From the IMG/VR virus record IMGVR_UViG_2877285697_000007: a stretch of 17,757 bases of DNA. One strand, given 5' to 3'. The position numbers and the translations under genes were made by a program. The number at the start of each line of letters is the position of its first letter. Position 1 is the stretch's first letter. Shown here one piece after another: positions 1 through 17,757 of the stretch. The notes under the pieces are model-generated. The model worked only from the letters and a program-made list of their open reading frames with translations, was not told where the DNA came from and ran no database searches. The stretch is from a virus. Taxonomy: Duplodnaviria > Heunggongvirae > Uroviricota > Caudoviricetes.

Positions 1-88
1 TTATCTTCTGGTATTTAGCTATCCCTCATAAGTTAATTGCCGCTGAGATATCCTAAGCTCTAGCCTCTGAAAATACATTTATATTTCG

Positions 89-124
89 AAGCCCGCGATA
101 TTTTAAGCGGGCTTTTATTTTAAA
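89..124. terminator. Candidate intrinsic terminator: stem AAGCCCGC (89-96) / GCGGGCTT (107-114), 10-nt loop, then TTATTTT on the + strand
   Basis: Inverted repeat read directly from the sequence; the T-run follows the stem on the + strand only, so it fits a + strand gene upstream of the window better than tfa, whose stop is at 120-122. Could be bidirectional. Confidence 0.4.
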
Positions 125-701
125 CTTCAGGTATTACAGGCCACTCAATATCAGGTGCAGTTGATGTATCAACACGGTTCAGCAACACCCGATACTTTTT
201 CCAGGCTTCCAGCAATGAGGTTTCTTCCTCCATTGCGATTTCCAGATCTACAGCATCCTGAAGTGGCGCAATATGCTCACTGGCTACCTGCATCAGGTTG
301 TTTTTTGTTTCTTCCGCCTCCCGGATCCGGAACAGTTTTTCTGCTTCTGCATCTTTCACCCAGGCTGTGCCGTTCCACTTCTGAAACTCCCCTTCCGGGG
401 ATAACCAGGTAACATTTTCCGGTAATAAGCCGAGTTCAGAAATAAATAACGCGTCGCCGGAAGCCACGTCATAAACCGTTTTACCCCGATGGTCTTCAAC
501 AAGATGCCACGATGCCTCATCACTGTTGAAAACAGCCACGAAGCCTGCCGGAATATCTGGCGGTGCAATATCGGTACTGTTTGCTGGCAGACCTGTATGA
601 GGCGGAATATATGCATCACCTTCACCAATAAATTCATTAGTTCCGGCCAGCAGATTATAAATTGTTATGGTCCGTGGTTGTTCACTCATTCTGAATGCCA
701 T
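120..701 (-). CDS. tfa: Tail fiber assembly protein (lambda Tfa family), 193 aa
   Basis: ORF begins [12 protein letters not shown]..., matching my recollection of lambda Tfa across its length. ATG at 699-701 overlaps the stf stop (TAATG on the coding strand), the arrangement expected for coupled stf-tfa. Confidence 0.9.
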
Positions 702-3664
702 TATGCAAGCCTCACAATATAGTTAAATGCGATGTTTTTGACGGTGTTTTCCGCGTTACCAGCAGCGTTAATGGTGATGGTGTGTCCATGTGAACCAATC
801 GCAACGGAGTGCGTATGAGCACCAATACCGACAGTATGTGCATGTGCGCCTGCGCTTGCAGCAGTGCCGGACAGCGAGTGGGTATGAGCACCATCTGATG
901 ATGTCTTCCCTGCATTACGAGTCTGGCCAGTACCGCTTGTTGTGCTCATAATCCCCGCGCTTAGATTTGAAATCGCGGTATAACCATTAGGGAAAATGCT
1001 CGTGTTCGTGCCACCAAATGCACCGGAACTCTTGTGTTGGTGCGCACCGGCACTATTTGCAGTCCCGCTAATACTATGGGTATGCGCCCCGGTGTTATTC
1101 GTGGATTTGGTTCCGTAATCAAACGACGATGTGTTTTTCGTCCCCAAATCCGTACTGGATGCGCTGGCGCTGTGGGTGTGCGATTTAATGCCGTCCTGTT
1201 CCTGAGACAATACGGCACGACCACTGGCGGGTTTGCCCTTAATCGTCCAGCCACGCATATCAGGGATCACGCCTGACGGATAAGCGGCTGCAAGTTTCGG
1301 GTATGCAGATTTGTCAAAAGTCTGCCCCTGCATCAGGGCATAGCCAGACGGAACGGTATCTGATGGCCACGGGATTGGTGCGCCAGGCGGATAAAACTGC
1401 TCTGATGGCGTATAGAGTGAATAAACTGTACCGTCCGTTAACCCTTCCGGCTTATTAGCAGAATATGCTGGTGACGTATGAATCGTCACGCTGGCATTAC
1501 TGGTATAATCCCATTGAATATTTACACCAGTCGCATAATTTCCGATTGCAACGTAAATATCGTAAGTATCACCAGATGTATTGACCCAGGCAAAATTTGT
1601 AAACCCTGTCAATGTGCGCTGCCATAAAGCACCAGTAATCCCCTTCGGATTACCATTACCTGCACGCAAAACAAGTTCAGATATACCTGCCTGTTGAGGT
1701 GACCCCACGTTAAATCCCGCGCCACCAATCAACGTAATTGAAACAACAGAACTCGCCTGTGGCATGGTTACCGTTGCTAATTTGAACCAACCAGCACCAC
1801 CGCTGAATGACATTGTTGTTGAGTTAAGCGTACCAATATCTTTCGGCGTCAGTGTTATATCCGCTGAAAGCGCCTTACCATTCACCTTACGGGCAGAGGG
1901 TACCCGACCATTCGCATTATCATTAGCTGCTTTCACTGCTTTCGGTGTCGCGGCAAGCGTTTCAGATACGCTGTTGGTTGCACTACTGAGCTGGACAATT
2001 CCTTTTTGTGCTGTCGTAGCGTCATGAGCAGTATATTTCCCGTTAGCAAGGTCATAGGCTGCCTTTACCGACTTTGGCGTTGCCGCCAGCATTTCAGATG
2101 TGCTGTTGGTCGCGCTGCTAAGCTGAACTATCCCTTTCTGTGCTGTCGTTGCATCCTGTGCGGTGTATTTCCCGTTAGCCAGCTCATACGCGGCCTTAAC
2201 GGCTTTTGGCGTTGCCGCCAGTGACTCGGAAGTGCTGTTAGTCGCGCTGCTGAGCTGTACTATCCCCTTTTTCGTCGTGCTCGCATCCTCAAGCGCCACG
2301 GCGGATGCAATATCCTCTGCCCGTTTTGCTGCTGTCTCGGCGCGCGTTGCCGCGGATTCCGCCGTACTCTTGCTCTGAGCTGCCGCCGTCGCACTGCCAG
2401 CTGCCTCTGTCGCCTTCGTGGATGCCGTCGTGGCACTGCCCTTCGCTGCTGATGCTTGTCTGGTCGCCTCATCTTTTGAAGCAGACGCAGATGATGCCGA
2501 TGACGCCGCCGAACTGGCGGACGATGCGGCAGCCGTTTTTGAGGATTCTGCGCTGGTTTCCGACGCTTTCGCGTTCGTCTCGGATGTCTTCGCTGCGGAA
2601 GCAGACCTCGCTGCTGCGCTGGCCTGTACAGCGGCTTCGCCAGCCTTCGTTGTGGCTGTTGAAGCGGACGATGCAGCACTTTCTGCCGATTTTCCGGCGG
2701 CGGTGGCACTGGCTGAGGCCTGCCCGGCACTTGTTGACGCGGCACTGGCAGATGATGCAGCCGCTGTTTTTGAGCCTGCTGCTGCGGAGGCACTCTGTTC
2801 CGCTGCCGTTTCAGAAGACCTGGCGTTTGTCTCAGACGTCTTTGCCGCCTTCGCGGAATTTTCTGCCGCCGTTGCCGAGGAAGCGGCACTACTGGCGCTT
2901 GATGATGCGTTCGTTTCTGATGATTTTGCCGCCTCTTTGGAGGCCGCCGCATCCCGGGCTGAGGTGGCAGATTCTGACGCTTTCGTGGTCGCGGTGGATG
3001 CAGAAGTGGCTGCTGATTGTTGTGACGCTGCAGCATTCGTTTCTGACGTTTTTGCCGCACCGGCACTGGTGGCCGCCGCGCTTTTTGAGGACTCTGCAGC
3101 GGCAGCACTTTTTGATGCTTCAGTGGCCTTTGTTGATGCCGTTCCTGCGCTGGAAGACGCCTCCTGAGCCGACGTCGCGGCCTGTCCGGCTGACGTGCTG
3201 GCTGCACGCGCTGAGCCTGCAGCATCAGTCGCATGGATTGCCGCCTCACTGGCAGATGTGCCGGCATCACTGGCTGACTTCTTCGCGGCTGCCGTGTTCT
3301 GTGCCACCGCGGACGCGTTACGCGCCACCTCTTCCACCATCAGTTCAAAACGGCGCAGAGCCTCCGGACGGGCATCATCCTCCGTCATGGCACCGAGAAA
3401 ATCATTCAGCGTACCGGGTTGAGAATCTTCATACACGGTGATGGTCCCGGCATGTGACGGCGGGAAGCCTTCCACCAACAGAATAACGCTGTACTGCCCG
3501 TACTCAACGTCCATGCTGTAACGCCCGGCTTCATCCGGATTTTCTGAGGCCAGCGTGTTCACCACCACCGTGGTACTGTTACGTTTTGCTTTCAGCTGGA
3601 TTGTGCAGTTCTGTACCGGTTTTCCTGTGCCGTCTTTCAGTACACCTGAAATCTTTACTGCCAT
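701..3664 (-). CDS. stf: Side tail fiber protein (lambda Stf family), about 987 aa from the ATG at 3662-3664
   Basis: N-terminus [26 protein letters not shown]... matches lambda Stf. The track's start at 3670 is a GTG two codons upstream; the ATG is preferred. Long Ala/Ser/Thr-rich shaft, three tandem ~44-aa repeats, and a His-rich C-terminal tip ending [18 protein letters not shown]. Confidence 0.9.
1900..2330 (-). repeat. Tandem in-frame DNA repeats of 132 bp (about 3 copies) inside stf
   Basis: Repeat units start at about 1970, 2102 and 2234 (GCTGTTGGTTGCACTACTGAGCTGGAC... and variants). They encode the repeated peptide [41 protein letters not shown]. Confidence 0.85.
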
Positions 3665-3671
3665 ATTCACC

Positions 3672-3702
3672 CCACAAAAAAGCCCGCCTGAACCGGCGGG
3701 CT
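3672..3702 (-). terminator. Intrinsic terminator downstream of lom
   Basis: Minus-strand stem AGCCCGCC / GGCGGGCT (3681-3688 / 3695-3702) with a 6-nt loop, followed on the minus strand by TTTTTTGTG. It sits between the lom stop (3729) and the stf start (3664). Confidence 0.6.
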
Positions 3703-3728
3703 GTCATAACACTGTGTTACCTGGCTAA

Positions 3729-4328
3729 TCAGAATTTATAACCAACACCCACGATGAACCCGTCAGTGCGCCAGTCACCACTGCCGGAGCCTTCATAAGC
3801 AATATCAATAGCCACGGATTCGGTCGGGTTAAACTGCACGCCAGCTCCCCACGCCAGAGACGTGTTGCTGTGGCGACCGTCATCACTTCCGGTCAGCACG
3901 TCGTGCGTTTTCCCCTTGTTGTCAGTTACGCGGAGATAATCCCCGGAGAAAGTCGACACACGGCTGTAAGCCACACCCGCCATCGCATACGCGCTGAACC
4001 ATTCATTCACGCGCACAGACGGCCCCGCCATCACGCTGAACCAGCGGTTACGAACGGAATCTTCATGCCAGCGGGTATCGCTGTAACGGGTAAGCTGGCG
4101 ATTCTTGTCTCCTGCATAGCTGAATGACGTCACCATCCCCAGTGTGTCCGTAAACTCATAACGGTATTTCACGTTAATCCCGTTCAGATCATCGCTGCCG
4201 GGAACGTTCGTCGAGGCATGAAGATACCCCGCGCTCAGCGTGGACTGATGTTCAGATGCCCATGCAGGCGCACCGGATACGGCCAGACAAATGGCTGCGG
4301 AAAAAATGGCGGCATAAAGTTTACGCAT
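3729..4328 (-). CDS. lom: Outer membrane protein Lom (Ail/Lom/PagC family), 199 aa
   Basis: Start [24 protein letters not shown] looks like a signal peptide. C-terminus [24 protein letters not shown] is identical to my recollection of lambda Lom. The track ORF 3729-4586 is an upstream in-frame extension that runs into the IS4 end; the ATG at 4326-4328 with GAGAGG upstream is the likely start. Confidence 0.9.
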
Positions 4329-4360
4329 AATTACCTCTCGCTTTTCTGCAATAAAAAAGG

Positions 4361-4374
4361 CACCATTTCTGGTG
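4361..4374. repeat. Target-site duplication, left copy (CACCATTTCTGGTG), flanking IS4
   Basis: The same 14-mer occurs at 5801-5814, immediately outside both IS4 ends. Confidence 0.8.
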
Positions 4375-5800
4375 TAATGCCAGTCAGTTAAGCAACTGAC
4401 TGGCTCTTTTTCGGGGCTGTGGGGTATTTCCAGGGCCTCTCCTTTACCACTCTCGGGAAGGCCCTTCCCCTTCTCGTCGGTAATTTCACAAGTTGTCCCA
4501 TACTTGCAAGATCGCGCATCAGCTCCGGTATACGTCCCGGTGAAGCGCCCTGCAATGTCATCAGCATTCTCATCACCATTCCGCATGATTCTGAGAAACT
4601 CAGTTGATTCGGCCAGTAACCTTTCAGATGTTCCGCCATTTTAATCATCTGATATCTCACCAGATTATAAGCCAGTAAGACACCCCACAGCTCTTGCTCC
4701 ACAAGCTCCGGCTTTTTACTTCTCAGCGTCAGCCTGCTCAGTTGCATCGTCTGTTTTATCTCCCTGTATCCCAGTTCGATTTCCCAGCGATGACTGTACA
4801 GATCCGCCATTTCTCCTCCGGGGAAGCGCATGGCGTCCGTCATCGACGTCAGCAGATGGCAGACTTTTCCTTTGCGCGTCACGGTCAGCAGGCGGGCTGT
4901 CACTTCATTTCCCAGTCCCGGCCACTTTTTTCGTGCCTGCGGGCTGGTTTTCAGCTTCACCAGATGATCGCCTTTACCCAGTTTTCTGAGCTCTTCATAT
5001 TGCGCTCCCTTTCTGAGAGGTATCATCCAGTGGCGGTGTTCTCCCGCCAGGCTCCAGGCATTTAACAGTCCCAGTGAGTAATAACCTTTATCCATTAACG
5101 TCAGAGTGTTATCGCCGGTTTGTTCTATAAGTTGCTCAGCAAGCTCATTTTCGCTGTTCTTCATCGTGCCGAAGGCTGCAGCCGTCAGCAGATGGCTGGT
5201 CAGTTCCATCTGGCAGACCATTTTGACCTGCGGGTAGAGCGCCGGGTTCCCGGCATGTGTCTGGCGGGGGAAGGCTGCATCGTTCTCTGGTGTATCCGGT
5301 GTGCGCCAGAACACACCATCGATGGCCAGCAGGGTCAGGCCGCACCAGTGCGGATGCGGCGTGGCGTTATGCCAGAGCTGCGCTGTTTTCGTGAACACGC
5401 GGCGGACAGCCTCACTTCCCAGGCGCTGGCGGGCCTGAATAACGGCACTGGGGGCAACGAAGGGGCGATTGCCCGGCAGCATGATGTCCAGGCGATTCAC
5501 AATCTGGTGAAGAGGTTCTTTACGCTCAAGCGCCATGCCAACAATACACCAGACCATCATTTCGAGGGGAAGACGGCGCTTGCGTAGCGTTACAGTACCT
5601 GATTCGGCAAGGCAACGAGAGATGAGTTCGGGGTCGAGGTAATCCCCCAGAGAAGTCAGTGGATTACGCAGAGAATCGTAACGGGATACCAGATCAAGAG
5701 TCTGTCCAATGTGCATAAAAAAATCCGGAAACAAGTGAGCGTTTCCGGATTCTTACACAGCCACTGGATCGGTCAACTGATCCTTAACTGATCGGCATTA
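4375..5800 (-). mobile_element. IS4, complete, 1426 bp
   Basis: Terminal imperfect inverted repeats TAATGCCAGTCAGTTAAG (4375-) and TAATGCCGATCAGTTAAG (revcomp, ending 5800), 16 of 18 matching. Encodes an IS4-type transposase. The length equals the known IS4 size. Confidence 0.9.
4388..5716 (-). CDS. insG: IS4 transposase (DDE, IS4 family), about 442 aa
   Basis: Sequence [40 protein letters not shown]... matches recalled IS4 InsG. ATG at 5714-5716; the track's 5734 start is an upstream in-frame extension. Confidence 0.9.
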
Positions 5801-5814
5801 CACCATTTCTGGTG
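5801..5814. repeat. Target-site duplication, right copy (CACCATTTCTGGTG), flanking IS4
   Basis: Identical to 4361-4374. Confidence 0.8.
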
Positions 5815-5837
5815 CCCTTATATGGGTTATAACAATT

Positions 5838-8800
5838 TCAACGAATACTGATGCCGGAAGCGGCTTTTTTGGTCACAATCACCGTACAGTCGGTGATATT
5901 ACCTGCCCGCTGATTGCCTTTATGGAAAACCTTAAACTCCAGAGTGACGCTTCCCCTGCCACTCGGCATATCAATAACCGCACTGTAGCTACCGGGAATG
6001 GCCCCTTTAGTTTCTCTGGATGCGATTAATACACCGTTTTTGCGAACTTCAAAACCATAACCCGTGTATCTTGTACCTCCCGGGTTATTACCACTTCCCG
6101 GATCGCTATACGCTATTCCGTTAAAGATAATGGGCGGAATAATGATTTGACGGTCAAAGTTATGATCATCGCTGATGGTGACTGTAACCGTCCCGTTTGG
6201 TGTTTCCGTATTACCCCACGTACCAGCCTGTTTCGGGAATGATTTGGATACAGCTTTAACGAAGTCACCTCTGACCTGAGTCGCCTCCAGCATGCCCTTA
6301 ATCGTACAGTTTTCATTTACCGTGACATTGTTGAGCGTCCCGGCGTTCGCATTCACACTGCCACTGATATCCGCATTTTTAGCGGTCAGCTTTCCGTCCG
6401 GAGTCAGGGAAAATGCCGGTGGATTTCCACCACTGGTAATGGTCGGGGCCGTCAGGCGCTTCAGGAACACGTCGTTCATAAATATCTGATTGCCCTGCGC
6501 CACAAACATCGGCGTTTCATTCCCGTTTGCCGGGTCAATAAACGCGATACGATTGGCGGCAACCAGAAACTGACTCAGTTTGCCTTCCTCCGTGTCCTCC
6601 ATGCTGAGGCCAATACCCGCGACATAATGTTTGCCGTCTTTGGTCTGCTCAATTTTGACAGCCCACATGGCATTCCACTTATCGTTGGCATCCTTCCACT
6701 CTTTCGAAAACTCATCCAGTCTGCTGGCGTTATCCTCCGTCAGGTCGACTTTTTCCAGCAACTCCTTGCCGAGATGAGATTCGGTTATCTTGCCTTTGAA
6801 AAAATCCAGGTAACCTTCCGCATCATCGCTCGCCCGACCGACAGCCTCCACGAATGCCGATTTGCCAACGGTGTTCACACTGCGGATATAAAAGTAATAA
6901 TCATGGCCCGGTTTGATATTGATACTGGCGGCTATCCAGTACAGCCCCGTGCCAAGATAGCGGGCTGCGGTTTCAACCTGCCTGATATCGGTAATCCGCG
7001 TTTCCGAGAACCAGAACTCAAACTGTACCGTCGGATCATAAACCGCAAGATGCGGCGTGGCAGTTATCTGAAAATAGCCTGGCGTCAGCTCAATCTGTGA
7101 CGGCGCTGCCGGTGCGGCAATCCGGAACGATACCGATGCCGGATCGCCCTGCTGTCCCCACGCATTTACCGCCCGGACTGTCAGCCTGTAGTTCCCCAGC
7201 GCCAGTTGCGTGAAGCGGTATGTGGTTTCCGCCGTCCGGGCCGTGCTGACCAGCGGCTCACTGCCGTCATCCGCTGCCACGGTCAGGCGAAGCAGGAAAC
7301 TCACGCCCTTCACCACCTTCGGCGTGTCCCAGCGCGCCAGTACCTGATATTCCCCGCTGTCTGCGGTGACTTCGGCAGTCAGGTGCTGCACCGCTGGCGG
7401 CGTGACACCATTCACCGTGCCGCTCTGGTCACCGTCAAAGTGCGCCCCGTTATCCACGATGGCTTCTTTTTCAGGCACATGCTGCACGGCGGTGATGGCA
7501 TACGTACCGTCGTCGTTCTCACGGATACTCACACAACGGAACAGGCGCTGGCGCAGCGTCGGCAGCTTCAACCCCCACACGCTGTATCCGGCAACGCCGT
7601 CAGGAACCCGGCTCACTTTCACCTTCACGCCGTCGGTGACGGACTGAACCTCCACGCTGACCGGATTGCCACTTCCGTCAACCAGGCTTATCAGCGTGGT
7701 ACCGGAGGATGGCAGCGTGATTTCACGGTCGAGCGTCAGCGTCCGGGTCTGGCTGTTTACCGCCAGCACGCGACCACCGATGCTGATACCGGCATAGTCA
7801 TCATCGCAGATTTCAATGACATCGCCCGGTACATGGCGAAGCCCTTCGGCACCCACGCTGAAGTCCACGGTCTGCGTCTCCAGCAGTTCCGTTTTAATCA
7901 GCCACAGCCCGGCGCGGTGTGCCTGCCCCCGGCTGGTACAGCCAAAGGCATCCATCTTCGTGACGTTACGACCGTAACGGGCAATGGCCTGCGTATCTTC
8001 AACAAGCTCTGTCGCCGTCTCCCAGCCGTTATCCGGGTCAATCCAGTTCACCTCAACGGCATTATGGCGGTCTTTCAGGGCGCTGAAGCTGTAGCGGAAC
8101 GGCGCGCCATCATCCGGCATCACCACATTACTGCGGTTATAGGTCCACACCTTATCCGACGGTCGGTCCTGCACGAACGTCAGCGTCTGCCCGTTCCATA
8201 CCGGCATACAGCGCATCGCCGAGCAGAAATCACTGAGCACATCCCACGCCTTGCGCTGTGTGGTCAGGTACGCATTACAGGTGATGCGCGGCTCCGTGCC
8301 GCCAAAGCCGTCCGGCACTGACTGGTCGCAGTACTGGCCGATGACATACAGCGCCCATTTATCCACATCCGCTGCACCAAGACGTTTCCCCATGCCGTAG
8401 CGCGGGTGGGTCAGCATATCCCACAGACACCAGGCCATGTTGTTGCTGTATGCCGGTTTTAACGTTCCGTCCCAGATACCGCTGTATTGCCGCGTCTGCG
8501 GGTTATAGTTCGACGGCACCTGCAGAATGCGCCCGCGCAGATGATAATTACGGCTCACCTGCTGGCTGCCGAACTGCTCCGAGTCCACCTGTACGCCGAC
8601 CAGTGCCGTGTTCGGGTAGCACTGTTTCACATCGATGATTTCGGTGTATGACGACCAGAGCGTTTTGTTCTGCAGCTGGTCTGTGGTGCTGTCCGGCGTC
8701 ATCCTGCGCATCCGGATATTGAACGGGCGCGGCGGCAGGTTACCCACCACCACCGATGCCAGATACTGTGAGGTGGTTTTGCCTTTAATGGTGATGTCTT

Positions 8801-9251
8801 TTTCCGTCACCCAGCCACCGTTACGCTGTATCTGAACCAGCAGGCGGACTTCCGACGGATTCCGGTCCCCCTTTGAGGTGGTTTCCACCAGTGCCTGCAC
8901 GCCGAAAGTAAAACGCAGACGGTCAATGTTTGCCGACCTGATGGTGCGGGTGATCGGCGTGTCATATTTCACTTCCGTACCCAGCACCGTCTCGGAGCCG
9001 GAGGATTCAAAACCCTCCGGCGGTGTCTGCTCCTGCTCACCGGCACGGAACACCACCGTGACGCCGGATATGTTGGTATTACCTTCACTGTCCAGCACCG
9101 GCGTACTGTTCAGCAGCACGCTTTTTAATCCATCCACCGGACCTTCAACCGGCCCTTCACTGATGGCATCGATCACACTCAGCAACTGCGTGGATTTGAG
9201 GTTGTCCTTCGCTTCGCGCGGGGTATGCCCCTTACTGCTGCCTTTACCCAT
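5838..9251 (-). CDS. J: Tail tip / host specificity protein J (central tail fiber), 1137 aa
   Basis: Starts [34 protein letters not shown]... and tracks lambda gpJ for most of its length. It lies 60 bp downstream of I, as in lambda. Confidence 0.92.
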
Positions 9252-9273
9252 TCGTCACGCTCCATAAACGACA

Positions 9274-9293
9274 AAACCGCCCGCAGGCGGTTT
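9274..9293 (-). other. Stable hairpin in the I-J spacer: AAACCGCC / GGCGGTTT with a CGCA loop
   Basis: Perfect 8-bp inverted repeat read from the sequence, 20 bp upstream of the J start codon. Function unknown. Confidence 0.3.
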
Positions 9294-9311
9294 CACATAA
9301 AATGTTTTGCA

Positions 9312-9959
9312 TCAGCGACCAATCACCACAACCTGACCACCATCCCCTTCGTCTGCCGTGCTGATCTCCTGAGAAACCACACGTGACCCCACGCGCATTT
9401 CCCCGTACAGAACAGGCAGAACATTACCCTGGGCAACCATGTTATCCAGTGACGAGAAATACGTGTTCTGTTTACCGTTATCTGTACTGGCTGCCGTGGG
9501 CGTCCTGGCTTTCGGTGCCAGCATCTGCGCCACACCACCCAGGATCATACTGGCCCCTGCTGCATACATACCCGATACAGCCGCGGCCCCCAGCCAGCCC
9601 ACAGGGTTCCACCATGCCACCGCAATCAGCGCCGCACCCAGCACCGCCTGAAACACACCGCCACTTTTGGCACCCGCCAGACGCGGAACGATGTGGATCA
9701 CGGCACCATTTGCCAGCGGTTCATTAAGACGGGCAGATAATTCATTTTCGCCTGCATCACGCCCGGCAATGCGCACCTGATACCAGCCGTCGCTCAGTTT
9801 CTGACGAAATGCCGGGAGCTGTGTGGCCAGTGCCCGGATGGCTTCGGCCCCCGTTTTCACACGAAGGTCGATGCGGCGGCCAAATCGCTGCAAATCCCCG
9901 TAAAGGCAGATGCGTGCCATGCCCGGTGACGCCAGAGGGAGTGTGTGCGTCGCTGCCAT
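9312..9959 (-). CDS. I: Tail tip assembly protein I (lambda gpI family), 215 aa
   Basis: Starts MAATHTLPLASPGMARICLYGDLQRFGRRIDLRVKTGAEAIRALATQL and ends ...VVSQEISTADEGDGGQVVVIGR, as in lambda I. Overlaps the 3' end of K by 103 bp, as in lambda. Confidence 0.9.
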   Translation of the reverse strand: MAATHTLPLASPGMARICLYGDLQRFGRRIDLRVKTGAEAIRALATQLPAFRQKLSDGWYQVRIAGRDAGENELSARLNEPLANGAVIHIVPRLAGAKSGGVFQAVLGAALIAVAWWNPVGWLGAAAVSGMYAAGASMILGGVAQMLAPKARTPTAASTDNGKQNTYFSSLDNMVAQGNVLPVLYGEMRVGSRVVSQEISTADEGDGGQVVVIGR

Positions 9960-10600
9960 TTGTCGGTGTACCTCTCTCGTTTGCTCAGTTGTTCAGGAAT
10001 ATGGTGCAGCAGCTCGCCGTCACCACAGTAAATGGCGGCATGATTCGGCACCGATGAACCAAAACAGCACAGCAGCACATCGCCCGGCTGCGCCGTTGAC
10101 AACGGCACCTGATACAGCCCTGTAGCCTCCAGATTATCCAGATAGAGATTCTGACCATTACGCCACCAGTCGTCCTCACGATGAAAATCTGGCATCTCAA
10201 TTCCCGCCAGATGGTAAGCGTCCCGGAACAGCGTGTAACAGTCCGTCACCCCGTGCTCAAAGCACCGCCCGGTGAGATGCGGCACACAGCGGAACTTATG
10301 AATCGCCCCGCGGCAGACCAGCCACCACGACAAATCACTCTGCACCTGCAGCCGCCGGTCGGCCTCACTCAGCCAGGGCAGACCACCGGGGTGGCTGTGG
10401 ACCAGCGCCACAATCTCACCCTGCATCTCTGCCTGCAGCCAGTCCTCCGGAGCCATCCGGAAATACTCCTCCGGCTCACCGGAAATATTCACGCAGGGAA
10501 AATATCTTTCCCCCTCCGGTGTTCTCACCACGAAGCCGCACGACTCCGCTGGCGCACATCGCCGGGCGTGCGCCAGAATCGCTGATTCTGTCTGTGTCAT
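9857..10600 (-). CDS. K: Tail tip assembly protein K (MPN/JAMM plus NlpC/P60 domains), 247-aa ORF
   Basis: Contains the JAMM-type motif EIVALVHSHPGGLPWLSEAD and a downstream Cys/His segment GVTDCYTLFRDAYHLAG. The ORF starts 5 bp after the L stop. The classical 199-aa lambda K corresponds to the internal ATG at 10454-10456 (MAPEDWLQ...). Confidence 0.85.
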   Translation of the reverse strand: MTQTESAILAHARRCAPAESCGFVVRTPEGERYFPCVNISGEPEEYFRMAPEDWLQAEMQGEIVALVHSHPGGLPWLSEADRRLQVQSDLSWWLVCRGAIHKFRCVPHLTGRCFEHGVTDCYTLFRDAYHLAGIEMPDFHREDDWWRNGQNLYLDNLEATGLYQVPLSTAQPGDVLLCCFGSSVPNHAAIYCGDGELLHHIPEQLSKRERYTDKWQRRTHSLWRHRAWHASAFTGICSDLAAASTFV

Positions 10601-10605
10601 GGGAT

Positions 10606-10954
10606 TTACTGCGAAAGTTTGTTAATGGAAAGGAAGCCGCCAAAGTTGCCGACGTTATTGCGAAACTTACAGCCGCTCAGGCATTTGCTGCATTTATCCT
10701 TCGTGATATCGGAGGTCGGCTGGTCATATTCATCCGCGACCGCCGGACCGTGATAACCGCACTCATCACCGCGATAGGTCCAGGTGCAGGTATTAGCCAG
10801 CATGATGCGCCCCGGAAAAACGGCACCATCCGTTTCCGTCGGTGTGGACAACACAAAGGAGGCACTGACCGCACTCAGTTCGCTGCACTGCTCTATGCGC
10901 CAGCGGCTGATCACCTCCTGCTCCGGATCGGCGTCGCTGTTTCCGTTGACGAAG
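10606..10954 (-). pseudogene. L: Tail tip protein L, 5'-truncated: only the C-terminal ~115 codons remain
   Basis: Ends ...CSKCLSGCKFRNNVGNFGGFLSINKLSQ like lambda L. Homology starts at FVNGNSDADPEQEVISRW; the first 9 codons of the track ORF (MAKFSVPLH) are encoded by the IS911 terminal repeat. Confidence 0.85.
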
Positions 10955-11026
10955 TGAAGTGGCACACTGAATTTGGCCACCTGAACAGAGGTGATATGCT
11001 CACCTCAGAACAACACAGGTGCTCCA

Positions 11027-12195
<1,169 letters not shown>

Positions 12196-12289
12196 CCACT
12201 TCACAAATGTGCGCTGGCTATTACGGCTGTAATGGCGATTTATTGTCTTGCTATTGTTCTTATGGATCGCCTTTCTGACTGATTTCACA

Positions 12290-12318
12290 TTGGCGAGGTA
12301 ACGGTAGTTAAGTAGAAT
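12290..12318 (+). promoter_or_regulatory. Candidate sigma-70 promoter of the hok mRNA: -35 TTGGCG, 17-bp spacer, -10 TAGAAT
   Basis: Hexamers read from the sequence. It sits just upstream of GGGTGCTTGAGGCTATCTGCCTCGG (12326-12349), which resembles the 5' leader element of plasmid R1 hok mRNA as I recall it. Confidence 0.45.
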
Positions 12319-12493
12319 GGCTGCGGGTGCTTGAGGCTATCTGCCTCGGGCATGAACACCAACGGCAGATAGAGAAAAGCCCCAGTTAACATTACGCGTC
12401 CTGCAAGACGCTTAACATTAATCTGAGGCCAATTTCATGCTAGACACATGTAGGTTAGCCTCTTACGTGCCGAAAGGCAAGGAGAAGCAGGCT

Positions 12494-12649
12494 ATGAAGC
12501 AGCAAAAGGCGATGTTAATCGCCCTGATCGTCATCTGTTTAACCGTCATAGTGACGGCACTGGTAACGAGGAAAGACCTCTGCGAGGTACGAATCCGAAC
12601 CGGCCAGACGGAGGTCGCTGTCTTCACAGCTTACGAACCTGAGGAGTAA
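12494..12649 (+). CDS. hok: Hok/Gef-family type I toxin, 51 aa
   Basis: MKQQKAMLIALIVICLTVIVTALVTRKDLCEVRIRTGQTEVAVFTAYEPEE: one N-terminal transmembrane helix and the conserved DLCE motif; closest recalled paralogs are HokD/RelF and HokC/Gef. RBS AAGGAGAAG precedes the ATG. An in-frame ATG at 12437 gives a 70-aa mok-like extension. Confidence 0.85.
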   Translation: MKQQKAMLIALIVICLTVIVTALVTRKDLCEVRIRTGQTEVAVFTAYEPEE

Positions 12650-12718
12650 GAGACCCGGCGAGGGAGAAATCCCTCGCCACCTCTGATGTGGCAGGCATCC
12701 TCAACGCACCCGCACTTA

Positions 12719-12749
12719 ACCCGCTTCGGCGGGTTTTTGTTTTTATTTT
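12719..12749 (+). terminator. Intrinsic terminator of the hok transcript
   Basis: Stem ACCCGC / GCGGGT with a TTCG loop, followed by TTTTGTTTTTATTTT. Confidence 0.75.
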
Positions 12750-12865
12750 CAACGCGTTTGAAGTTCTGGACGGTGCCGGAATAGAATCAAAAATACTTAA
12801 GTAGCGCGCAGGGATAAGAGGGATGGTCCCTTAAAGGGGAGAGCTAATTATCCGGAAGGATTCTG

Positions 12866-12949
12866 ATGATGAACATCGAAGAACTGCGTAAAATTTTTTG
12901 TGAAGATGGCCTCTATGCTGTGTGCGTTGAAAATGGAAATCTTGTTTGA
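12866..12949 (+). other. Small ORF (27 codons, MMNIEELRKIFCEDGLYAVCVENGNLV) apparently truncated by IS911
   Basis: Good RBS (AAGGA, 5-nt spacer). Its stop codon TGA is the first three bases of the IS911 copy B terminal repeat, so it is either a gene remnant or a chance ORF. Confidence 0.25.
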
Positions 12950-12954
12950 AGTGG

Positions 12955-14123
<1,169 letters not shown>

Positions 14124-14373
14124 TGGAGCACCTGTGTTGTTCTGAGGTGAGCATATCACCTCTGTTCAGGTGGCCAAATTCAGTGTGCCACTTCATTGAG
14201 AACCAGCACCACAACCTCCTGTATTGGACGTACACCAGTCCTGATGAATATGAGGCTGTCTCGTCAGTGATTCAATACAACTATTGGGTATAGTTTCTCT
14301 GATTTTTTCTGTGGAAATGGGGCTCAACCACTAGTCATTTAATACGCAAAGTCCGATACAAGCTAACCTTCTA

Positions 14374-14397
14374 GTCCGCTTTGAGCGAAAAGCGGAC
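14374..14397. repeat. Palindromic hairpin GTCCGCTTT / AAAGCGGAC with a 6-nt loop, about 60 bp past the HAD gene stop
   Basis: Read from the sequence. The same stem core recurs at 15840-15863. No T-run follows it on either strand, so it is not a classic intrinsic terminator. Confidence 0.5.
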
Positions 14398-14457
14398 GTT
14401 GGAAGTTTAAAACTCGCGAACTACTCAGCGTCCATTGATGCGTATTGTGTAACGTGA

Positions 14458-15096
14458 TTAACCACAGATGATATTGAAACGTTCTCCGGAAATCTTGACC
14501 ATAATGTCAGACAGTTCGCTGACGGCATGGGCTTCAGATGATCCCAGAGCGTCAGGCTGAACAGCTATTACCGAAGCTCCACTTGCCAGCCCTGCTTTTA
14601 TACCCGCAGATGCATCCTCAAATACCACGCATTCACCAGGCTCAAGGCCCAAAGCCAAAGCTGCTTTGATGTAACCCTCGGGACTTGGTTTTCCCGTCAT
14701 TACATCTTCTGCACACACCATTACTATGGGTAAGGGGAGATTAGCCGCTTTCATCCTGTTTTCTGCAAGCATTCTGCCTGCAGAAGTGACAAGTGCCCAG
14801 CTATCCGGTGGCAGTTTTGATAAGAGTGCAGCGGCCCCTTTTACTTCAGTAACGCCTTCTGTCGTGTTGATTTCAACCTCTTCGAGTGAGGCCGCGATTT
14901 TATTGGTTTTCTCACCTGCACCAATAAAATGCGTCAGTGTATCAATCGTTTGCCGCCCGTGTGCGTAAGCAATCACAGCCTGAGTATCAAGACCGTATTC
15001 TGCACAAAAATCTCTCCAGACGCTTTCCACTACGGCTGTTGAATCAACCAGCGTACCGTCCATATCGAATAAAAAACCCTTAGCGTTGAATATCAT
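14458..15096 (-). CDS. HAD-superfamily phosphatase (subfamily IA, sugar-phosphatase / beta-phosphoglucomutase-like), about 212 aa
   Basis: Motif I FLFDMDGTLVDS, plus VTSA, TGKPSPEGY and VVFEDASAGIKAG; resembles E. coli YfbT/HxpB-type hexitol phosphatases from memory. Start is placed at the second ATG (15094-15096), which has AAGGA 6 nt upstream; the track start is 15102. Confidence 0.8.
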   Translation of the reverse strand: MIFNAKGFLFDMDGTLVDSTAVVESVWRDFCAEYGLDTQAVIAYAHGRQTIDTLTHFIGAGEKTNKIAASLEEVEINTTEGVTEVKGAAALLSKLPPDSWALVTSAGRMLAENRMKAANLPLPIVMVCAEDVMTGKPSPEGYIKAALALGLEPGECVVFEDASAGIKAGLASGASVIAVQPDALGSSEAHAVSELSDIMVKISGERFNIICG

Positions 15097-15125
15097 TGCC
15101 ATTCCTTAATGGTTGCAGAAGAAAG

Positions 15126-15764
15126 TTAATCAAACCATGTTTTTTCATCACCTTTCGCTACTCTCAGGCTGACAGCAATCTGCTCAGGCACAATTCTTGA
15201 AAGCGACAATTCAGGCAGGTCGTTGACATCAAAAAAATCAGCATCGAGTGACTCATGGCTGATTGACAGGCTGCCACCTACTTCTTCACAGAGAAAAATC
15301 AGCTTGTAAACATGCCAGGGTAAAGGCGGATGGCCGTGAAGATTACGATCCCAAACTCCCAATAGTTTAGTCACTCTGACTTTTAATCCGGTTTCTTCTT
15401 CGACCTCTCGACGCACAGCTTCAGAAGGTGTATCTCCAACATCTGCCCATCCGCCAGGAAGACTCCATAATCCATCTGCAGCCTCTTTCACCATCAGAAT
15501 ACGATTATTACGCAGGATAAACGCACGCACATCTGTTTTGGGCGTCGCGTAACCCGTTTCCGATACATGAAACAAATCATTGCGGCTAATATCAAACTGC
15601 GAACTCAGCAGTCCAGCGGCAATTTCACGCAAGGCTTCATAGCGTTCCTTGTCAAAGACGTCTTTTGAATAGGTCAGGCCTGACTGCGCGAGGGCCTTTA
15701 GTCTCTGGGCAACAAAAATAAGCTTTTCTTGGGTCAACACTTCAGACATGTTTTTCATCTTCAT
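15126..15764 (-). CDS. NUDIX hydrolase with an N-terminal extension, ADP-ribose pyrophosphatase-like, 212 aa
   Basis: Nudix-box-like segment GGWADVGDTPSEAVRREVEEETGL (REVEEETGL fits REUxEExGU) preceded by a ~70-aa N-terminal domain. Start is ambiguous among three Met codons (MKMKNM). Stop is 23 bp upstream of the HAD start, suggesting an operon. Confidence 0.8.
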   Translation of the reverse strand: MKMKNMSEVLTQEKLIFVAQRLKALAQSGLTYSKDVFDKERYEALREIAAGLLSSQFDISRNDLFHVSETGYATPKTDVRAFILRNNRILMVKEAADGLWSLPGGWADVGDTPSEAVRREVEEETGLKVRVTKLLGVWDRNLHGHPPLPWHVYKLIFLCEEVGGSLSISHESLDADFFDVNDLPELSLSRIVPEQIAVSLRVAKGDEKTWFD

Positions 15765-15839
15765 TTATGTATTCAGAGTTCCTGTTAAGGATACTGCTCA
15801 ATTCAATGAAGAATAACAAATGCATCTGGCACCTGCTAT

Positions 15840-15863
15840 GTCCGCTTCTGGCACAAAGCGGAC
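15840..15863. repeat. Palindromic hairpin GTCCGCTT / AAGCGGAC with an 8-nt loop, between the 133-aa gene and the NUDIX gene
   Basis: Same stem sequence as the hairpin at 14374-14397; the two bracket the NUDIX-HAD pair. Confidence 0.5.
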
Positions 15864-15960
15864 AACCACGCCAGATCTACCCTGTGCCATGAAAAATGAG
15901 AATGTCAATTCACTCCTGAACTAATGCTTTTTAATCTAGTAACGTCTAAAATACCTAACA

Positions 15961-16362
15961 TTATCCCTGATAAAATGCCAGTATGCGCTGCATAACTTCA
16001 CTCATCCGGCACTCGCGACAGATTATGTTTAGGCGACTGTCGTAGCGACGTATTTCTCCATCAGGTAACGACCAGATAAGGTCCGGATCAACCACAGCTG
16101 TTTTCTTCACCTTTGCCCTCGATAGTTTTTTGCGGGCGTTTTGCCAGTCCTTACGCGCCTGTTCAGACGGGAATAACCCGTAGCCGGAGTTGTATACATC
16201 GCCACTGGCTACCAGCTCTCTGGCAAGAACGCTCATCAGATATCTAGTCGCACCTGTTTTAGCTTCCAGTTGCCGTAACGTCTCACGACCGCTCTGGCGC
16301 ACGAGTTCCACCACCTGCCCTTTAATTTTTTCCCGCTCTTCTTGTGTAAAAACTTTTGCCAC
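15961..16362 (-). CDS. Hypothetical small basic protein, 133 aa, with a possible helix-turn-helix (TLRQLEAKTGATRYLMSVLAREL)
   Basis: ORF with a GTG start at 16360-16362 preceded by GGGGGA. I recognise no family; the HTH assignment is by eye only. Confidence 0.5.
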   Translation of the reverse strand: MAKVFTQEEREKIKGQVVELVRQSGRETLRQLEAKTGATRYLMSVLARELVASGDVYNSGYGLFPSEQARKDWQNARKKLSRAKVKKTAVVDPDLIWSLPDGEIRRYDSRLNIICRECRMSEVMQRILAFYQG

Positions 16363-16402
16363 AAGTCCCCCTTAAAATTACCTCATGACCTGAAATCAAA
16401 AC

Positions 16403-16927
16403 TTATCCTCTGAAACCAGGCGGAATTTCTGTATCCGGTTCAGAAATATGATTCACACAACGCTGTACAGGTGAACGTCCCAGGCGGATGACCAGTTCGT
16501 CCCATTTTTCGCGGAGTTTTGACGGGCTCATGATGTTTTTTACCCAGAATGGATCCCGCTGTACCCGACCAAACATTTCGCAAATTTGTCTGTGGCTTCT
16601 GCCATCCAGCATCCGCATTGTGCGCACGTCATTGGCCCAGGCTGTCCAGTTAGGCTCTTTTGGTCGCATGATCTCTCCATCGTCGCTGGCAGCCTGTTCG
16701 TAAAGGTTCACGATCCGCCCCCAAATCCACTGCGCACACGCCAAATCCTCCCTGCTACCCCACTGGCGTTTTTTCACACTAAACACAACCGCGTCGGGGT
16801 TCCGGGTTAAAAAATCCTGTTCAGTCGTCTGCGGGTCCGGTTGCGAAGCTTCCGGACGAAAAGTGTTTTTATTCTCTGTAGTAATCTCTGTTGTATGAGG
16901 TGTACTGGCAATAGCGGACACTACCAT
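16403..16927 (-). CDS. DnaT-C-terminal-domain-like protein (prophage / plasmid replication-associated), 174-aa ORF
   Basis: C-terminus ...NHISEPDTEIPPGFRG closely resembles the C-terminus of E. coli primosomal protein DnaT as I recall it (...SEPDSQIPPGFRG). The first ~11 codons overlap the presumed IS600 terminal repeat, so the native 5' end is uncertain. Confidence 0.5.
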   Translation of the reverse strand: MVVSAIASTPHTTEITTENKNTFRPEASQPDPQTTEQDFLTRNPDAVVFSVKKRQWGSREDLACAQWIWGRIVNLYEQAASDDGEIMRPKEPNWTAWANDVRTMRMLDGRSHRQICEMFGRVQRDPFWVKNIMSPSKLREKWDELVIRLGRSPVQRCVNHISEPDTEIPPGFRG

Positions 16928-17757
16928 TTGTTCTTTTTTTAAGCAGCCATCTGATGATATTTTTCCCTGAAGGCTGCCGGGGAGATATTCCCCAGACGAG
17001 AGTGACGACGCTGACGATTGTAGAAAATCTCAATGTATTCCCGTATTACTGAGATGGCTTCATCCCGGTTATTAAAACGATAGTGGCTCAGGCTCTCATT
17101 TTTCAGCGTTCCCCAGAAGCTTTCCATCGGAGCGTTGTCGTAACAGTTACCTTTACGCGACATTGATGTTTTCAGACCAGACTGCTCCTGTATGACCCGG
17201 TAATCGTATGCGCAGTACTGTGAACCTCGATCAGAGTGGTGGATTAGCCCGGCAGGTGGGCGCTGGCTCCTGAGCGCCATAAACAGGGCTTTACCTGTCA
17301 GCTCTTTTGTCATGCGCTCTCCCATGGCGTAGCCGACAATTTCGCACGTATAAACATCTTTGATGCCAGCGAGGTACAACCATCCCTCCTGTGTGGCAAC
17401 ATACGTCAGGTCCGCCACCCAGACCTGATTTGGTGCTGTAGGAGCGAACGTCTGGTTCAGCAGATTTGGCGCAACTGGCAGATTGTGGTTCGGGTTCGTA
17501 GTCGCTCTGAACTTGCGTTTCTGCTTACAGCGTAGCCTTAGCTCCTTACGAAGACGTGCCAGTCGGTCACGACCAACGATGATGCCATTCTCTGCCAGCT
17601 CCGTCTGGAGCCGCCGGGTTCCATATGTTTCGCGAGTGCGGATATGTGCCACCTTAATCTCCAGTTTTAGCCGCTCATCACTTTGTTTTCTGTCTGAGGG
17701 TTCATGCTGTACCCAGTTGTAATAACCGCTCCTGGATACACCAAATACCTGACACAT
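16895..17757 (-). mobile_element. IS3-family element, IS600-like, partial (continues beyond the window end)
   Basis: Terminal sequence TGAGGTGTACTGGCAATAGCGGACAC resembles IS3-family inverted repeats (compare IS3 CAATAGTGGACAC). Encodes an IS600-like OrfB. The inner boundary is approximate. Confidence 0.65.
16939..17757 (-). CDS. IS3-family transposase OrfB (IS600-like), 5' end outside the window
   Basis: MCQVFGVSRSGYYNWVQ... with a DDE/rve core (VWVADLTYV, HHSDRGSQYCA, CYDNAPMESFW). The ORF reaches the window edge; orfA and the frameshift site are not in the window. Confidence 0.85.
   Translation of the reverse strand: MCQVFGVSRSGYYNWVQHEPSDRKQSDERLKLEIKVAHIRTRETYGTRRLQTELAENGIIVGRDRLARLRKELRLRCKQKRKFRATTNPNHNLPVAPNLLNQTFAPTAPNQVWVADLTYVATQEGWLYLAGIKDVYTCEIVGYAMGERMTKELTGKALFMALRSQRPPAGLIHHSDRGSQYCAYDYRVIQEQSGLKTSMSRKGNCYDNAPMESFWGTLKNESLSHYRFNNRDEAISVIREYIEIFYNRQRRHSRLGNISPAAFREKYHQMAA

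Follow-up and report, generated by a model that had tools for sequence, protein, structure and literature searches.

Organization of the locus

The stretch of DNA analyzed here (17,757 nucleotides, referred to below as the window) holds parts of a lambdoid prophage and four IS elements; the coordinates of all features are given in Table 1. The tail genes tfa, stf, lom, J, I and K lie in the left part, with an IS4 between J and lom, and next to K is L', the 3' part of L, which abuts the left end of IS911 copy 1. A 743-bp prophage segment with hokD and the beginning of rem separates this copy from IS911 copy 2. On the far side of copy 2 lies an early-region remnant of the same prophage, which is ended by IS600.

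Table 1. Features of the 17,757-nucleotide window.
Feature	Position	Strand	Description
tfa	120-701	minus	full length
stf	701-3670	minus	full length
lom	3729-4328	minus	full length
IS4	4375-5800	minus (transposase)	1426 bp, in J-lom spacer; 99.9% identical to RefSeq IS4
J	5838-9251	minus	1137 aa, full length
I	9312-9959	minus	Lambda_tail_I; full length
K	9857-10600	minus	JAB + NlpC/P60; 247 aa, full length
L' remnant	10606-10954	minus	L codons 118-232 + stop; tail-tip hub gene L
Chimeric ORF	10606-10980	minus	124 codons; IS911 IRL tip fused in frame to L'
IS911 copy 1	10955-12203	plus	1249 bp; IRL adjoins L', IRR adjoins inverted segment
IS911 copy 1 orfA	11027-11329	plus	HTH_Tnp_1 match
A6G frameshift motif	11278-11284		AAAAAAG, between orfA and orfB
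IS911 copy 1 orfB frame	ends at 12195	plus	rve match
Prophage segment	12204-12946	plus	743 bp, inverted vs native neighbors; hokD + rem'
CAA	12204-12206		flipped half of TTG target duplication
hokD	12494-12649		Pfam HOK_GEF; intact, 51 aa
rem'	12866-12946		first 27 codons (81 nt) of rem
IS911 copy 2	12947-14195	minus	IRR adjoins rem', IRL adjoins TTG at 14196-14198
Early-region remnant	14196-16895	minus	same prophage; HAD, NUDIX, DUF977, O-like 3' part
HAD hydrolase	14458-15102	minus
NUDIX hydrolase	15126-15764	minus
DUF977	15961-16362	minus
O-like replication gene	16403-16895	minus	C-terminal 165 residues
O-like chimeric ORF	16403-16927	minus	174 aa; IS600 ATG + ~10 codons (MVVSAIASTPH)
IS600 end	16896-17757	minus	100% identical to RefSeq IS600; truncates O-like gene

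The ORF lengths of K, I, J, lom, stf and tfa equal those in the intact prophage of E. coli 55989. An intact K-I-J-lom-stf-tfa module had been proposed in the original prediction, and this holds for every one of the ORFs, but the IS4 between J and lom had been overlooked. This IS4 is complete, is flanked by the 14-bp repeat CACCATTTCTGGTG (4361-74 and 5801-14), interrupts a GGCACCA...TGGTGCC hairpin in the J-lom spacer, and is absent from E. coli 55989.

The two IS911 copies are 100% identical over 1249 bp and inverted to each other, and the sequence is also 100% identical over this length to elements listed in RefSeq as 'IS3-like element IS911 family transposase' (the reference IS911 is, we assume, 1250 bp long). 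The end at 10955 reads TGAAGTGGCACACTG..., and the opposite end reads TGAAGTGGTCAACAA... on the other strand; 10955-12203 has the imperfect inverted repeats, the 5'-TG ... CA-3' termini and the length of ~1.25 kb of an IS3-family element. Traits of IS911 (IS3 family, copy-out/paste-in) that are found here are the TGAAGTGG... terminal repeats, the orfA/orfB arrangement with an A6G slippery site and, after un-inverting the 743-bp segment, a 3-bp target duplication. There is nothing unusual about the element itself. A perfect 7-bp stem (GAGGTGA-N5-TCACCTC) is present at 10989-11007, inside the left end and upstream of orfA. The presence of two IS911 copies, IS4 and IS600 within 17.8 kb is presumably typical of Shigella or enteroinvasive E. 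coli.

At the right side of the window, IS600 cuts the O-like replication gene at approximately residue 157 of 321. The part that encodes the N-terminal half is gone, as are all the genes further on (cro, repressor, integrase). Beyond IS600, the source records continue with a truncated FimH-like gene and a molybdopterin oxidoreductase of 759 aa; a further rearrangement has therefore removed the prophage's right end.

The chimeric ORF and the L fragment

We compared the region around 10955 with intact L genes. DNA similarity to the L genes of thousands of E. coli genomes ends at window position 10955 in every comparison, and from there onward the sequence changes to TGAAGTGGCACACTGAATTTGGCC. 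The abrupt start of L homology at the IS911 terminal repeat was thus correctly located by the original prediction, since the alignment to intact L stops exactly at this base. At the protein level, residues 10-124 of the chimeric ORF (115 aa) align with the L protein of phage ev099 (232 aa) over residues 118-232 at 100% identity, so that homology begins at F118 of 232, at the IS911 left end. L' was matched to the lambda gpL structure PDB 8iyk_L (E=8e-77, chain residues 110-232) and to Pfam Phage_tail_L (PF05100; 176 bits, profile positions 82-206 of 206); profile positions 1-81 are without a match in L'.

The length of the ORF (124 codons) and its coordinates (10606-10980) were also right. The start codon, predicted to be an ATG supplied by the IS end, is a GTG at 10980-10978 inside IS911, and no ATG was found in frame within the IS911 part. 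The translation reads VAKFSVPLH-FVNGNSDADPEQEV...INKLSQ followed by the stop, with the junction peptide AKFSVPLHFVNGNSDADPEQEVISR. Of the nine codons ascribed to the IS, eight are complete, and the ninth has only 2 IS bases. The L frame remains open for 16 codons plus the two junction-codon bases into the IS tip, and the GTG is met within this stretch. An exact-sequence look-up of the 124-aa product returned no record, and the junction string CCGTTGACGAAGTGAAGTGGCACACTG had no match in GTDB species representatives or JGI metagenome contigs.

Lambda gpL consists of an HDI beta-sandwich (residues 1-166) and an iron-binding (Fe-S) domain (residues 154-232) with Cys173, 182, 205 and 212 (PMC10721106). 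The cut at 117/118 takes away ~70% of the N-terminal HDI and leaves the C-terminal iron-binding domain whole. Like lambda gpL, L' holds residues 118-232 and all four Fe-S cysteines (C173, C182, C205 and C212), which are conserved as predicted ligands of a [4Fe-4S] cluster; within this part the two proteins differ at two positions, D124 (Y in lambda) and H185 (S in lambda). Unlike lambda gpL, L' is without the N-terminal 117 residues and carries 9 IS-derived residues in their place. The absent residues make up most of the HDI, which builds the last tail ring with J in lambda. When full length was taken as the test for gpL membership, the N-terminal HDI (residues 1-166), needed for the J-L ring, was found to be incomplete. 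Judged from its sequence, L' is a gene fragment and not a functional member of Phage_tail_L. Because most of the HDI is gone, a protein made from L' could not do the job of L as a hub protein.

An independent lesion at the M/L boundary was observed in an unrelated strain, E. coli 214-4 (NZ_CP025840.1; locus L001, 3307-3981), in which L is annotated without its N-terminus and the neighboring tail gene without its C-terminus, and J is frameshifted. A join of tail genes to an IS3-family element in E. coli LHM10-1 was set aside as irrelevant, the IS lying beyond tfa and L being intact.

Comparison with an intact prophage

In E. coli 55989, this chromosomal position is occupied by a collinear prophage that appears to be complete. 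Its left neighbors, ydfJ, KGG, two DUF892 genes and a Mn-catalase gene, are also found in the public sequences in which the window occurs. The 55989 prophage, with its tfaQ and hokD (so named in RefSeq) and rem, and the remnant agree in neighborhood (ydfJ, Mn-catalase and DUF892 next to tfa) and in gene order. We take this position on the ydfJ side to correspond to that of Qin in E. coli K-12. Window positions 1-4374 and 5801-10955 align to the 55989 prophage from tfa to mid-L with 96-98% identity.

The interval that is absent from the window corresponds to 1767132-1789391 in 55989 coordinates (22,260 bp). On the tail and head side it contains the 5' half of L, M, H (tape measure), T, G, V, U, Z, the head and portal genes, and terminase. 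On the other side it contains lysis genes, two tRNAs, a Q-type antiterminator, rusA, DUF968, a small ORF and the 3' part of rem. Besides most of the L HDI, the window lacks the tube, tape-measure and distal-tail genes.

The original prediction had noted that the head genes and the remaining tail genes are missing from the window, and indeed none is present. Its description of a non-inducible remnant also agrees with the gene content, as the prophage is without M to Z, head, terminase, lysis and Q and is cut by IS600 on the right side. With a 22.3-kb internal deletion in addition to the IS600 loss, the prophage is more degraded than was first recognized. As in other IS-decayed lambdoid prophages of E. 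coli and Shigella, such as the cryptic Qin, Rac and DLP12 of K-12, an IS-bounded internal deletion is found here, and head, lysis and late-regulator functions have been lost.

Expression signals at the L'/IS911 junction

The frame that is open across the junction, with a start codon 9 codons into the IS, and the intact downstream tail ORFs are features that would be expected if IS911 had simply inserted in L and its end provided a start codon, and perhaps an outward promoter, for the expression of chimeric L' and K-I-J-lom-stf-tfa from the IS. We examined the signals that such expression would use, and together with the junction sequences they make this explanation very unlikely. The start is a GTG without a recognizable Shine-Dalgarno motif in the 5-10 nt before it; the anti-SD pairing at this GTG is weak (-3.7 kcal/mol), and the only GAGGTG sits 20 nt upstream. 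The gene caller used for the public records prefers an internal GTG as the start of L', giving a product of 102 aa that lies outside the IS.

No sigma-70-like site was detected on the minus strand between 10500 and 13000 in a consensus scan. In a relaxed promoter scan, the nearest candidate with a score of at least 8/12 was a 9/12 match at 11926-11897, which has a poor -35 and is located ~940 nt upstream of the junction. A single outward-facing promoter element has been described in IS911, the -35 of IRR, which pairs with the inward-facing -10 of IRL only in the circular intermediate (PMC9330008). L' adjoins IRL, the wrong end for this outward -35. An outward IS911 promoter for the tail-tip genes, as originally suggested, finds no support, given the lack of a sigma-70-like site on the minus strand and the location of the known -35 in IRR. 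The locus resembles IS-activated neighbors (outward or hybrid promoters, PMC9330008) in that an IS end is directly upstream of intact genes, and it is unlike them in that the end next to the tail genes is IRL and that a -35/-10 pair could not be detected. The deleted interval includes both Q and the natural late promoter. IS4 parts J from lom-stf-tfa, and therefore a transcript from the IS911 side would be stopped short of lom-stf-tfa and would not serve the whole module.

The sequence on the far side of IS911 is likewise not what a simple insertion would leave. Where the other half of L should lie, there are a deletion junction to rem, an inverted second copy of IS911 and a flipped segment of 743 bp. 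That the prophage is cut in L by IS911 is thus true in the sense that L is truncated at the IS911 end, and the simple insertion implied by that wording did not hold.

We also asked how often an IS end would provide a start codon. Outward from the IRL tip, GTG or TTG precedes the first stop in two of the three frames, and therefore an IS-supplied start is the likelier outcome of a random insertion. The IS600 end at 16896 serves as an internal control in the same window, with the same kind of IS-supplied start for the O-like gene, and the resulting 174-aa ORF was accepted by public gene calls. We concluded that the IS-supplied in-frame start, seen twice in this one window, is no more than chance gives, and that the 124-codon ORF is an incidental by-product of the junction. 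The ORF is most likely without meaningful expression; read-through from the IS911 antisense strand, or a non-consensus promoter, may nonetheless occur.

Very improbable, in our estimate, is that the remnant has been kept as an exapted module (e.g., for receptor binding or exclusion) that is expressed by read-through or from an unrecognized promoter, with the GTG of the IS giving rise to a stand-alone Fe-S protein. In this reading, a lineage in which the rest of the prophage has been shredded still has intact K, I, J, lom, stf and tfa and, of L, precisely the Fe-S domain, which is exposed on the surface. The intactness of these six genes despite four IS elements in 17.8 kb could be read as a sign of selection, and recent decay would account for it equally well.

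Inversion, target duplication and origin of the deletion

In intact prophages (AR_0017 and E. coli 55989), the genes share a strand and follow one another as rem-hokD-(HAD-NUDIX or a different cargo gene)-DUF977-O. Window positions 12200-12946 match the hokD-rem region in reverse, and 14196-16896 match the adjacent early region in the forward direction. Since hokD-rem' is reversed and its right flank is forward, the hokD-rem' piece must have been inverted. The empty site in AR_0017 reads GCGCACATTTGAGAACCAGC and contains one TTG. The reverse complement from 12204 ends with ...CACATTTG (over a longer stretch, ...GCGCACATTTG), and the sequence from 14196 begins with TTGAGAACC (over a longer stretch, TTGAGAACCAGC). 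Un-flipping of the 743 bp gives a perfect 3-bp TTG duplication around one IS911, which therefore entered by simple insertion, with hokD on one side and the HAD gene on the other. At the other IS911, un-flipping joins L codon 118 to rem codon 27, with the flanks ...GACGAAG (...GTTGACGAAG) on the L side and AACAAGATTT... on the rem side. No target duplication was found at these L and rem flanks, and the junction is therefore a deletion end-point, where none is expected.

Taken together, we put at roughly 90% the probability that the locus is the decayed remnant of one lambdoid prophage beside ydfJ, with a ~22-kb deletion made by IS911, a 743-bp inversion, and the chimeric ORF as a by-product. 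IS911 activity would have taken out the ~22 kb from L codon 117 to rem codon 28 and left one copy at the L/rem deletion junction. A second copy would have inserted at the TTG between hokD and the HAD hydrolase gene, and the 743 bp between the two inverted copies would have been flipped, either by homologous recombination or as part of an intramolecular transposition. Two most parsimonious histories fit. In history (a), IS911 would have inserted at TTG, a second copy would have come to lie at the L/rem junction, and recombination between the inverted copies would have flipped the 743 bp. In history (b), IS911 would again have inserted at TTG, an intramolecular event would then have put an inverted copy in L and flipped the stretch between the two, and an adjacent deletion from the second copy would finally have removed the 22 kb. 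Both histories would lead to the same present junctions and are indistinguishable here. What was observed directly is the anatomy with its breakpoints and target duplication, and the missing Shine-Dalgarno and promoter motifs; the order of events, and that the ORF is neither expressed nor functional, is what we infer from these. The number of events is three in the shortest histories considered and may be higher in others.

Two identical inverted IS911 copies around a toxin-antitoxin gene could also suggest a composite transposon, IS911-hokD-IS911, that inserted as a unit into L. This is hardly credible, and the junction sequences refute it: the outer flanks are AAG (10952-54) vs TTG (14196-98) and form no duplication, the right flank is the native neighbor of hokD in intact prophages, the inner junction holds the flipped half of the TTG duplication, the remaining L is not across the element, and the cargo hokD-rem' is native to its prophage position and not foreign.

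Inverted repeats that are identical over 1.25 kb are well known to cause mis-assembly, and an artefact made by mis-joining contigs over the IS911 repeats is just as improbable and was rejected on the junction evidence, the flipped target duplication being exactly what a real inversion leaves. The whole 17,757-base window is 100% identical in two separately deposited complete chromosomes, CP026827.1 (4.56 Mb) and CP119450.1 (4.64 Mb). In a third assembly, a draft contig spans 5803-10950 and breaks at the IS4 and IS911 edges. The identical window in two chromosomes and the contig breaking at the same edges indicate that the structure is real.

The junction set was found only in these two other complete chromosomes and the one draft. 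When each of the three IS911 junctions was searched by megablast in 5,426 complete E. coli genomes, no record spanned any of them, and no evolutionary intermediate was found among these genomes; CP026827.1 and CP119450.1 are outside the RefSeq genomes labelled E. coli. In this respect the locus is unlike known decayed prophages, as the set L118/IS911, rem27/IS911 and IS911 at TTG is absent from all 5,426.

The IS911-mediated deletion and inversion described above amount to ordinary IS-mediated prophage decay. The appropriate annotation is an L pseudogene at a 22-kb deletion bounded by IS911, and no new chimeric gene should be entered. Beyond correct annotation the locus is of little importance. 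It is useful as a worked example of the inverted-IS signature: two inverted IS copies with a split and flipped target duplication, from which the inversion and the deletion can be reconstructed to the base.

Two minor observations concern the hokD region. Because the 743-bp segment lies between identical inverted IS911 copies, recombination might in principle still invert it repeatedly. Between hokD and DUF977, the cargo varies among these otherwise collinear prophages: the window (14458-15764) and AR_0017 carry HAD/NUDIX, and 55989 carries a DUF5677 gene (locus L007, 4433-5458).
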